The position numbers were made by a program, and so were the translations under genes. From positions 1 through 31,663 of the forward strand of contig JAQVDI010000001.1 of assembly GCA_028698375.1 (NCBI GenBank): a stretch of DNA of 31,663 nt. The letters are read 5' to 3'. This document shows, piece after piece, positions 1 through 11,660 of the stretch (positions within the stretch are counted from its first letter, which is position 1; the number at the start of each line of letters is the position of its first letter). Origin of the DNA: Patescibacteria group bacterium (GTDB taxonomy: Bacteria > Patescibacteriota > UBA1384 > JAGGWG01). A model generated the notes under the pieces. The model made no database searches. It worked only from the letters and a program-made list of their open reading frames with translations, and was not told the DNA's origin.

Positions 1-396
1 ATCATTCAGGCGATCATACATCTATTTCAAGGTCGCGATAGCCTCTTTATTGTTTGAATTGTGAGGAAAACTTGTTGTCATGCAGATAATCATGTCGAAT
101 TTTTCATTCCAAGACTTTGAAAGAGTTCTAAAGTTTTCATTTTTCAAAGCTATCGACAGACCTTTGAGATTTTTACCTGCACTTTTTAGCATTCCGTCCG
201 ACAAATCAGAGCCAGCACATTTAAGCCCAAGTTTATTCAACATGAACAAATGCCAGCCAGTGCCACAAGCACAGTCAAGACAGGTTTTTATTGAATATTT
301 CTCGATCAGCTTTTTGAAGAAAGATTCTTGTTTGAAAATTTCTTCTTTAGGTTGTAGTGCGTCGTAATCGACGGACAGATTTTGATAGTTATCCAT
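1..396 (-). pseudogene. Class I SAM-dependent methyltransferase interrupted by an in-frame TAG; runs off the left edge
   Basis: Motif I LDCACGTGWH, then GSDLS and FDMIICM. The frame stops at TAG 22-24 after 124 aa but continues in frame as ATG TAT GAT CGC CTG AAT GAT (MYDRLND) to position 1. Confidence 0.75.
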
Positions 397-420
397 AGTT
401 ATTTAGTAATTGCATAAAAG

Positions 421-450
421 ATTATATAAATTTTTTGATATGTCGCACAA
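421..450 (-). promoter_or_regulatory. Putative sigma70 promoter for the methyltransferase
   Basis: Minus strand TTGTGC (450-445), 18-nt spacer, TATAAT (426-421), about 25 nt upstream of the ATG at 396. Confidence 0.5.
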
Positions 451-519
451 CTCATTTCTATACGAATTAAATGTACAATATCGATCATTTTTTGTATATT
501 ATACGAATTTAATGTATAG
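445..519. other. attC-like imperfect hairpin / candidate recombination site
   Basis: CTATAC 458-463 pairs with GTATAG 514-519, ATTAAAT 466-472 with ATTTAAT 507-513, and GTACAATAT 473-481 with ATATTATAC 496-504 (one mismatch). GA bulges sit at 464-465 and 505-506. GCACAAC at 445-451 reads GTTGTGC on the minus strand. Confidence 0.55.
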
Positions 520-573
520 TTATTAATACAAATATTCATTTGCTAATTTGAGTTTACTAATTTTTACAAAATT

Positions 574-1389
574 ATGCAACAAAAATATTTAGACCAAACA
601 AATCAGGAATTAAAATTAAGAAATTACAGTTTCAAAACTGTAAAGATTTATCTTGCTTGTTTAAATGAATATTTTGATTTCAAAAAATTTAATTTAGGAA
701 AAATAGACGAAGAAAAAATAAAACAATTTTTGCTAAACAAACAAAACAAAAAATATGCCCCGCAAACAATTAATCTTTATTTAAACGCAATAAAATTTTT
801 CTACCGCGAAGTGCTAAAAAATACCCAAAAGATTAATTTGAAATTTGCCAAACGAAATAAAAAACTGCCGATTGTTTTATCAAGAAAAGAAATCAAAAAT
901 ATTATTGACACAATTAAAAATCCAAAACATAAATTAATAATTTCTTTAACTTACGGTGCCGGACTCCGAATCAACGAAGTGATAAATTTAAAAGTAAAAG
1001 ATATTGATGTGGATGAGCTGGTAATACATTTGAAAAATGCAAAAGGTAAAAAAGACAGAATCACAATTTTTCCTGAAAAATTAAAAAATAGTATATTAAA
1101 TTTAATAATGGGGAAAGATTTTGATGATTATATTTTTGAAAGCGAAAGAGGAGGAAAACTATCAGAAAGAACAGCTCAAAAAGTTTTTAAAAAGGCGCTC
1201 AAAGAAACTAGCATTAAAAAAGATGCCACCTTTCATTCGCTTAGACATTCTTTTGCCACTCATTTATTAGAAAATGGGGTAGATGTTCGTTATGTCCAAG
1301 AACTTCTTGGCCATCAAAATATTAGAACTACTCAAATATATACACAAGTAACTAATCCGAAGCTAAAAAATATTAAAAGTCCCTTATAA
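574..1389 (+). CDS. Tyrosine recombinase, integron-integrase-like but without the IntI insertion
   Basis: N-terminal LKLRNYSFKTVKIY. Catalytic set GLRINE, KGKKDR, HSLRHSFATH, LLGH and TQIY. Ends in SPL. Confidence 0.92.
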   Translation: MQQKYLDQTNQELKLRNYSFKTVKIYLACLNEYFDFKKFNLGKIDEEKIKQFLLNKQNKKYAPQTINLYLNAIKFFYREVLKNTQKINLKFAKRNKKLPIVLSRKEIKNIIDTIKNPKHKLIISLTYGAGLRINEVINLKVKDIDVDELVIHLKNAKGKKDRITIFPEKLKNSILNLIMGKDFDDYIFESERGGKLSERTAQKVFKKALKETSIKKDATFHSLRHSFATHLLENGVDVRYVQELLGHQNIRTTQIYTQVTNPKLKNIKSPL

Positions 1390-1421
1390 CAAAAAAGCGG
1401 GTAATTTGTCTATTTTATAAT

Positions 1422-1510
1422 CGGTGGGGGTGGGATTCGAACCCACGATCATCTTGCGATGATTCCGCTTTTCGAGAGCGGCCCGATCAACCAAACTCCG
1501 GCACCCCACC
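1422..1510 (-). tRNA. tRNA-Ser(CGA)
   Basis: Acceptor GGTGGGG/CCCCACC, anticodon arm CCGCT-CTCGAAA-AGCGG, long variable arm, GGTTCGAATCC T-loop. CCA is not encoded. Confidence 0.95.
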
Positions 1511-1554
1511 AACTATTTATAATTCCATAAAAAAAGAGTAAAATCAATTTAAAA

Positions 1555-10856: not shown

Positions 10857-11660
10857 TTAATGCCCCCTAAGATTTCGACCTTTCCAATAACCTTGAGAAT
10901 ACCCAGAATAATAAGGGCTATAACAACCCTTTTTAGCATTACCGGGAGGAGGATCCCAAACACCATTATAACCATCAATATATCCAACTTCTACACCTTG
11001 GCTATGAACATTTTGATTATATTTACCTCGAACCTTATGAGGTGCCTTAATCAAATGTTGCGGATGCTTCGCTTGGGGTACAGATCTTTCTCTAGCTTGG
11101 TTATTTGAATTGTGACGATAACCAAAACCAGTTCTTTCATCGCTAGAGTAATTACCGCTATTATTTTGGTATGCAACCTGATCAGAGTTAACTGTAACTC
11201 GATCAGAATAAGACAAGGGATCTGTCCTGCCAATGCAATTACCCCGATCATCATAATGATAAATAGAACCATTATCCTGCTGAATTGATTGGCCAATCAA
11301 TTGGCCTTGTTGACCATAATGAACAGTTTGACTCCCATTATGAACTGACTGCCCAACTTGATTTGAACCAAAAATGCCATCAATCCAACCCATATAACCA
11401 CCAGCATAATGATAATCTCTATCTCCTACAGAAATTGTATGCCCAGATGATCGGCCGCTAGAATCAAAATGATTAGTACCTAAGCCACCTGATTCAGAAT
11501 GACCAGCCGAAGAGCCATCACCAGAATAATGAGATCCATTACCGCTAAAGTTATTACCGCTAGAATTAGAATTAGAACCATTAAATATATCTACTTCATT
11601 TGCAAAACCAGCAGCCAATTCTCCAAGTGCTCCAAGTATGCCACCATCATTTTTACCCAT
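10857..11660 (-). CDS. Hypothetical G/S/N/Q/Y/H-rich low-complexity repeat protein
   Basis: Long open frame with its own promoter, SD and terminator. The ATG at 11660 is preferred over the GTG at 11669 (AAGGAG 8 nt upstream). Confidence 0.7.
   Translation of the reverse strand: MGKNDGGILGALGELAAGFANEVDIFNGSNSNSSGNNFSGNGSHYSGDGSSAGHSESGGLGTNHFDSSGRSSGHTISVGDRDYHYAGGYMGWIDGIFGSNQVGQSVHNGSQTVHYGQQGQLIGQSIQQDNGSIYHYDDRGNCIGRTDPLSYSDRVTVNSDQVAYQNNSGNYSSDERTGFGYRHNSNNQARERSVPQAKHPQHLIKAPHKVRGKYNQNVHSQGVEVGYIDGYNGVWDPPPGNAKKGCYSPYYSGYSQGYWKGRNLRGH

Follow-up and report, generated by a model that had tools for sequence, protein, structure and literature searches.

A probable integron-like gene-cassette platform in a Patescibacteria genome, headed by an IntI/XerA-like recombinase without the IntI-specific insertion

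We propose, at a probability of roughly 0.8, that positions 1-1389 of a contig from an ultra-small Patescibacteria group bacterium form the head of an integron-like gene-cassette platform, a reading that draws on sequence comparison with orthologous loci. The window, by which we mean the whole 31.7-kb contig analysed here, belongs to a genome of 631 kb (33% GC, 75 contigs, 92.5% complete). Contig base 1 is its left limit, with no sequence further left on the contig, and of the putative platform it holds only the recombinase gene, its docking site and, from the start of the first cassette, 451 bp; we infer the array that would follow in the source genome from its relatives and from one foreign contig. 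These relatives are Patescibacteria/CPR MAGs, and the orthologous loci were taken from related genomes and a species-level genome collection (80 loci, proteins 57-84% identical). The genomes of origin being largely MAGs, some of the taxonomic labels and bin memberships are unreliable.

The gene at 574-1389 (plus strand) encodes a tyrosine recombinase of 271 aa that resembles both IntI and XerA, with a PF00589 match of 1e-43 and an IntI-type N-terminal SAM-like domain (PF13495, Pfam), in agreement with the IntI-style N-terminus described in the initial annotation. The full R-K-H-R-H-Y set described there is likewise present as R132, K157, H221, R224, H247 and Y256, all of which are invariant across the family alignment, and we recovered the same terminal SPL and the same 58 residues between KGKKDR (157-162) and HSLRH (221-225). 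Integron integrases are defined by an extra domain, and this IntI-specific domain around patch III, the I2 helix, is missing from the recombinase. The solved structure that it matches best is that of V. cholerae IntIA (VchIntIA, 2a3v, 6e-46). The alignment is broken, pairing residues 5-185 of the recombinase with 5-189 of VchIntIA and 194-271 with 240-317, and leaves VchIntIA residues 190-239 without counterpart, so that about 42 residues of the IntI insertion (I2 region) are absent. The match to the integron-integrase model TIGR02249 is also split in two stretches, with model positions 176-235 unmatched, and its 219.6 bits fall under the cut-off of 265; together, these two broken alignments bear out the earlier claim of an integrase without the IntI insertion. 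In addition, the recombinase exceeds the cut-off of the NCBIfam XerA model NF040815 (230.3 bits against 220) and aligns end to end with the archaeal XerA structures 4a8e (3e-43) and 5hxy (4e-41), while XerD gives 3.5e-21 only.

In a quickly built maximum-likelihood tree with E. coli XerC/D as its root and IntI1, on a long branch, as the sole true IntI, the recombinase fell with IntI1 and apart from XerC/D and the CPR core Xer. One long branch (SH-aLRT 100) unites IntI1 with all short members of the family and a few longer variants, and the universal CPR Xer of 300-350 aa forms a separate clade (SH-aLRT 99). In one relative of 324 aa and 50% identity, P0140, about 40 extra residues sit exactly where IntI has its additional domain, and this protein aligns in one piece with both TIGR02249 and IntI1, with a TIGR02249 score of 231.8 bits that is still below the cut-off. 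Judging from these proteins, either a secondary loss or a later gain of the IntI insertion is possible.

The docking site spans 440-509, directly upstream of the recombinase gene and divergent from it in the manner of an attI-type site, with an architecture unlike that of attI1. Its attI-like core consists of a cassette-side 11-bp arm that forms part of the first cassette (440-450; family consensus ATTTCnnATAA), a 7-bp centre, CTCATTT (451-457; family consensus C^TCGTTT, the caret marking the junction), and a recombinase-side 11-bp arm, CTATACGAATT (458-468; family consensus TTATnCGAAnT), which is followed 41 nt from its start by an accessory direct copy, TTATACGAATT (499-509). The left and right 11-mers of the consensus are inverted complements and thus make up an 11-7-11 dyad core; the second copy of the right arm recurs about 41 nt further on across the family, and the block tTGtAtgTTATaCgAA is conserved at that distance. 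Arms of dif sites end in ATAA and TTAT, and on this sequence pattern the docking core resembles them. Of the 74 related loci whose upstream DNA is long enough, 71 keep the site, at a distance of 62-207 nt from the recombinase ATG, and across loci its left arm is variable and its right arm conserved, as would be expected if the left arm comes with each inserted cassette.

The initial annotation had interpreted 458-519 differently, namely as a bulged hairpin that may serve as a folded attC-like or hybrid site. This hairpin does occur in the minimum-energy fold, yet it is no stabler than that of shuffled sequences (z -0.15): as ssDNA, 438-530 folds with -6.1 kcal/mol against a shuffle mean of -5.79, and 84 of 200 shuffles fold as well. 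Instead, the region contains a direct repeat of 17 nt, with copies at 459-475 and 500-516 that lie 41 nt apart, and the hairpin with its "GA bulges" appears because each copy of the repeat is partly palindromic. We therefore dropped the hairpin reading; its left half corresponds to the recombinase-side arm of the dif-like core and its right half to the accessory direct copy. Apart from these two copies, the window contains only a chance-level match to the 17-nt motif with 3 mismatches, and matches elsewhere in the genome are weak, the one on contig C26 being no better than chance. The initial annotation had expected further copies between genes; as the motif proved unique to the docking site, their absence does not refute the platform. 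The GCACAAC that it had reported beside the hairpin was confirmed at 445-451, most of it inside the cassette-side arm, and its role as a marker of the recombination junction gains comparative support, given that cassettes are replaced exactly at TAAC^. Similarity between alternative cassettes ends between 451 and 452, or between 450 and 451, as C451 is invariant.

Elements that do look like folded cassette sites are found left of the docking site, where many related loci carry GC-rich structured elements whose sequence differs from that of 458-519 in the window. These attC-like sites follow the layout R''-L''-variable part-L'-R' over about 90-150 nt. Their R and L stems are set apart by an asymmetric 1x4 internal loop that is conserved, as is the branched inner part, and their outer stems reach 30-80 nt into the cassette ends. 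Among ten of them, 88.7% of cells are paired compared with 24-45% when the partners are slid, and 6 of the 11 L''/L' pairs show compensatory changes. The covariance model R1, built from those ten sites, gave 122 matches at E<=1 in 1.09 Mb. At E<=0.01 there were 101 matches in the 80 loci, all of them upstream of the recombinase gene and on one strand, and model R1 had no match downstream of it, though downstream DNA is 1.66 times more abundant in these loci. When the 121 distinct matches are taken together, the paired share of cells is 86.8% (34-39% with slid partners), and compensatory changes occur in 10 of the 11 L''/L' pairs, values that lean towards the structure, the alignment having been fitted to the model. 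At least one site is present in 46 of the 54 loci with more than 1 kb upstream, at least two in 24 and at least three in 10, with up to seven sites within 10 kb and a median spacing of 873 bp. By comparison, the density of self-BLAST repeats (0.33 per kb upstream versus 0.26 downstream) was not discriminating, whereas the covariance model was. An Rfam search of five related loci returned tRNAs only, and model R1 found no attC-like site in the window, nor elsewhere in the assembly, which is 92.5% complete. The stems that covary after each ORF could in part be RNA structures or terminators.

We also observed two further arrangements of structured DNA in this region. At L066:6540-6750, two attC-like sites follow one another head to tail without an intervening gene, an arrangement suggestive of an empty cassette or a tandem site. 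A second type of GC-rich element, outside model R1, lies against the docking site or between cassettes in ten loci (L004, L009, L039, L045, L068, L072, L074, L080, L095 and L097); it comprises two hairpins whose arms carry cores of the GTTGTG../..CACAAC type and whose loops carry GCGNAGC, a motif about 5-fold enriched in the 500 nt upstream of the recombinase gene. Locus L068 has three near-identical copies of this element, each of about 170 nt.

As read from the aligned loci, the cassette layout in the relatives is the integron cassette rule. On leaving the recombinase, one meets the docking site, G^TTA.., the start of a cassette and one gene, then the complement of the cassette start ending in ..TAAC (R'') and an 11-bp stem half (L''), and finally the branched inner part with a conserved unpaired run, L', AAAC and the G^TTA.. 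of the next cassette. An inverted copy of the sequence left of the junction is found 0.3-5.6 kb upstream in at least 13 loci, with similarity ending exactly at AAC^. In these loci the structured element comes after the distal inverted copy, and the first cassette starts with the inverted complement of the sequence that precedes its own R''. In 89 of the 94 cassette intervals, the longest ORF faces away from the recombinase; it takes up about 75% of an interval. These loci thus contain what integrons contain, single-ORF, outward-facing cassettes that obey the circular-cassette rule. The cassette products are mutually unrelated and include a methyltransferase, a NUDIX protein, a histidine phosphatase, an SDR, a deaminase, an isochorismatase, an SRPBCC protein, a deformylase and an LD-carboxypeptidase.

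Comparison of close relatives shows that these arrays turn over at the junction. Three loci from different samples (L117, L118 and L119) have identical recombinases and DNA that is 100% identical rightwards from TAAC and wholly different leftwards. For the window itself, a Logan contig of run X2, from another landfill sample, matches 449-910 without mismatch and has 32 first nucleotides unlike those of the window, which places the divergence at 448/449. Homologous cassettes occupy differing positions among arrays, with similarity ending in the R' region of the neighbouring site, and 17 of the 80 contigs end no more than 250 nt upstream of the recombinase gene, as expected for a heterogeneous population or for repeated sites. 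The closest relative with context, L113 (recombinase 85% identical), has three attC-like sites at E<=1e-8 and a weak fourth (E 0.023). Another pair of loci with identical recombinases, L114 and L116, differs inside the first cassette, where a 223-nt stretch (L114:5386-5608) is replaced by 100 nt (L116:1177-1276) with 99.9% identity on both sides.

In the window, the first cassette (1-451, minus strand) is cut by the contig end and carries a SAM-dependent methyltransferase gene (PF13649, PF08241). Its ORF at 22-396, with an ATG at 396, faces away from the recombinase, as the initial annotation had stated for the passenger gene. The ORF closes at an in-frame TAG (24-22) after codon 124, and the frame runs on (MYDRLND) to contig base 1, which would mean that the cassette gene has either suffered a nonsense mutation or been altered by an artefact at the end of the assembly; in contigs of run X1, positions 31, 37, 46 and 51 vary but the TAG does not. 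We found neither a continuation of the left end of the window nor a second methyltransferase fragment in the assembly. If the platform reading is correct, as we consider probable, the methyltransferase would be the most recently inserted cassette and the remaining array would be unassembled. Methyltransferase cassettes also occur in L104 and L113, in the latter as the second cassette, and we rejected the notion that the window and L113 share the same cassette, the two proteins being only 26% identical. The promoter that the passenger gene had been thought to possess failed a consensus scan, and the scan of the region gave no more sites than in shuffles. A promoter-like site with 10 of 12 matches, read on the minus strand from 526 to 498, lies across the accessory arm and is directed into the cassette, but as a Pc-like promoter that drives the cassettes it is only a lead.

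From this architecture, a mechanism can be sketched in which the recombinase would bind, as double-stranded DNA, the dif-like docking site that immediately precedes its own gene, and its partners would be the folded attC-like sites on circular single-gene cassettes. Recombinase dimers would engage the double-stranded 11-7-11 site and a folded cassette site, the R''/R' stem of which would mimic the cassette-side arm and the L''/L' stem the second arm, and one strand exchange beside the invariant AAC (450-451) would insert or excise a cassette. We infer that this recombinase would perform the cassette reaction and that the attC-like sites would act as folded single strands. The full proposal, that an IntI/XerA-like recombinase without I2 recombines attC-type sites, folded as single strands, with a double-stranded docking site resembling dif, is advanced tentatively and at somewhat less than even odds. 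In a published account, the acquisition of I2 was linked to single-strand attC recombination and treated as what enabled an Xer-like enzyme to use folded single-stranded sites (PMC7790495); with I2 absent, the chemistry may differ from that of single-strand attC recombination in integrons. Of the non-canonical cassette system put forward in the initial annotation, the insertion-less integrase therefore stands, along with arrays, a docking site and cassette swaps in relatives, and the bulged hairpin as its site does not.

Three other explanations of the locus deserve consideration, of which the first concerns the tRNA genes beside it. In the window, a tRNA-Ser(CGA) (1421-1511, minus strand, ARAGORN) is convergent with the recombinase gene and lies 31 nt from its stop codon, and in 19 of 74 loci there are tRNAs within 600 nt after the recombinase stop, all 22 of them (10 Ser, 5 Ala, 3 Leu, 2 Thr, 1 Trp and 1 Ile) on the minus strand and convergent. 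The recombinase might thus be the integrase of a genomic island that enters the 3' end of a tRNA gene as a whole block, with the upstream site being regulatory or derived from attP. Such an island would fit L068, where a 64-nt exact direct repeat (L068:5275-5338 and L068:10821-10884) brackets the cassette array and the recombinase gene; the repeat begins with the 3'-terminal 14 nt of the adjacent tRNA-Leu, the intact tRNA at 10972-11055 contains these bases a third time, and from its sequence the locus looks like tandem tRNA-integrated islands that carry the platform. However, the other 18 loci have no flanking repeat within 10 kb, 55 of the 74 loci have no nearby tRNA, and the docking site, the internal attC-like sites and the swaps at TAAC^ are left unexplained by integration into tRNA genes. 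In the source assembly, we found no second copy of the tRNA-Ser 3' end. We therefore regard a tRNA-targeting island as an unlikely account of the locus as a whole; tRNA targeting may be an additional property rather than an alternative, and the sequences suggest that in some genomes the whole platform may sit on a tRNA-integrated island.

Equally deserving of attention is a housekeeping single-recombinase Xer/dif module, in which the site would serve chromosome-dimer resolution and the adjoining DNA would consist of IMEX-like or pdif-type elements that exploit Xer. The score against the XerA model, the end-to-end alignment with XerA structures and a dif-like site with 11-bp inverted arms ending in ATAA and TTAT, a short centre and an adjoining gene, as in XerS, all speak for this interpretation. 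Yet an orthologue is present in only 7 of 41 related genomes, whereas a different Xer of 300-350 aa, which falls in its own clade, is present in 41 of 41, and fragments of this other Xer were found in the source genome; the patchy occurrence of the one beside the universal presence of the other argues against a housekeeping dif role. Proteins from distant CPR lineages and from some archaeal bins are 60-85% identical, which further points to horizontal spread, and the partner sites are long, folded, in a single orientation and tied to single ORFs, so that we hold a housekeeping module to be improbable. A phase-variation switch, in which a DNA invertase would act on an invertible segment, is very improbable and was dropped: the inverted repeat pairs between the site region and DNA 0.3-5.6 kb upstream that, with weak NCBIfam matches to tyrosine-type invertases, had made it attractive proved to be the two ends of single cassettes, as the circular-cassette rule demands, the folded sites all have the same orientation with genes in one direction, and the alternative forms observed are replacements rather than inversions.

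The cassette platform that we favour shares with the integrons of the V. cholerae chromosome and of class 1 a recombinase gene divergent from the adjoining docking site, arrays of single-ORF cassettes reading away from the recombinase, and cassettes closed by an imperfect palindrome (R''-L''-variable part-L'-R') whose cores read ..YAAC and GTTR... It further shares with them a junction beside AAC/GTT, first bases of the cassette that are complementary to its own R'', and a recombinase that is most similar to VchIntIA and groups with IntI1. Unlike in integrons, the recombinase is without the I2 insertion of about 42 residues and stays below the TIGR02249 cut-off, the docking site combines a symmetric, dif-like 11-7-11 core and a single accessory arm in place of L and R boxes with DR1 and DR2, the inner part of the attC-like sites is branched and conserved and their outer stems reach into the cassettes, and the hosts are Patescibacteria and some DPANN-labelled bins. 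From the single-recombinase Xer systems (XerA/dif of Archaea, XerS/difSL and XerH/difH), with which it has in common a protein of about 270 aa that passes NF040815 and aligns fully with 4a8e and 5hxy, 11-bp inverted arms ending in ATAA and TTAT and, as in XerS, a site by the gene, it differs in the patchy occurrence of its gene beside a universal second Xer, in folded, cassette-borne partner sites and in arrays of accessory genes. The pdif modules of Acinetobacter and IMEX are likewise mobile gene modules that have Xer-type sites at their ends and rely on Xer-like recombinases, but they use host XerC/D and plain 28-bp double-stranded sites in alternating orientation, and they have no dedicated recombinase, docking site or folded sites. 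CALINs, that is, attC clusters without an integron integrase, resemble the present arrays as attC-type arrays without canonical IntI and include most of the archaeal attC arrays that have been reported (PMC9668308), whereas the present arrays are headed by a specific non-canonical recombinase and a docking site. Our literature search, which was incomplete, returned no description of an insertion-less integrase heading CPR cassette arrays, and an earlier publication is possible.

As a large family, cassette arrays headed by a close relative of IntI that lacks the additional domain, at a dif-like site, represent a natural test of the I2 idea. If our reading is true, the I2 insertion is not required for integron-type cassette capture, and a system widespread in CPR and DPANN would be either a living analogue of the transition from Xer to integron or a case of secondary loss of the insertion. 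In 75 archaeal genomes, 539 attC sites but only six IntIs have been reported (PMC9668308), and an enzyme of the present kind could be the one missing behind many attC clusters without integrase; integron surveys keyed to the IntI domain would undercount systems of this type. The absence of the integron-defining domain from the recombinase of a probable cassette platform bears on the origins of integrons, and for host-dependent bacteria with minimal genomes, the platform would provide a dedicated means of trading accessory genes.
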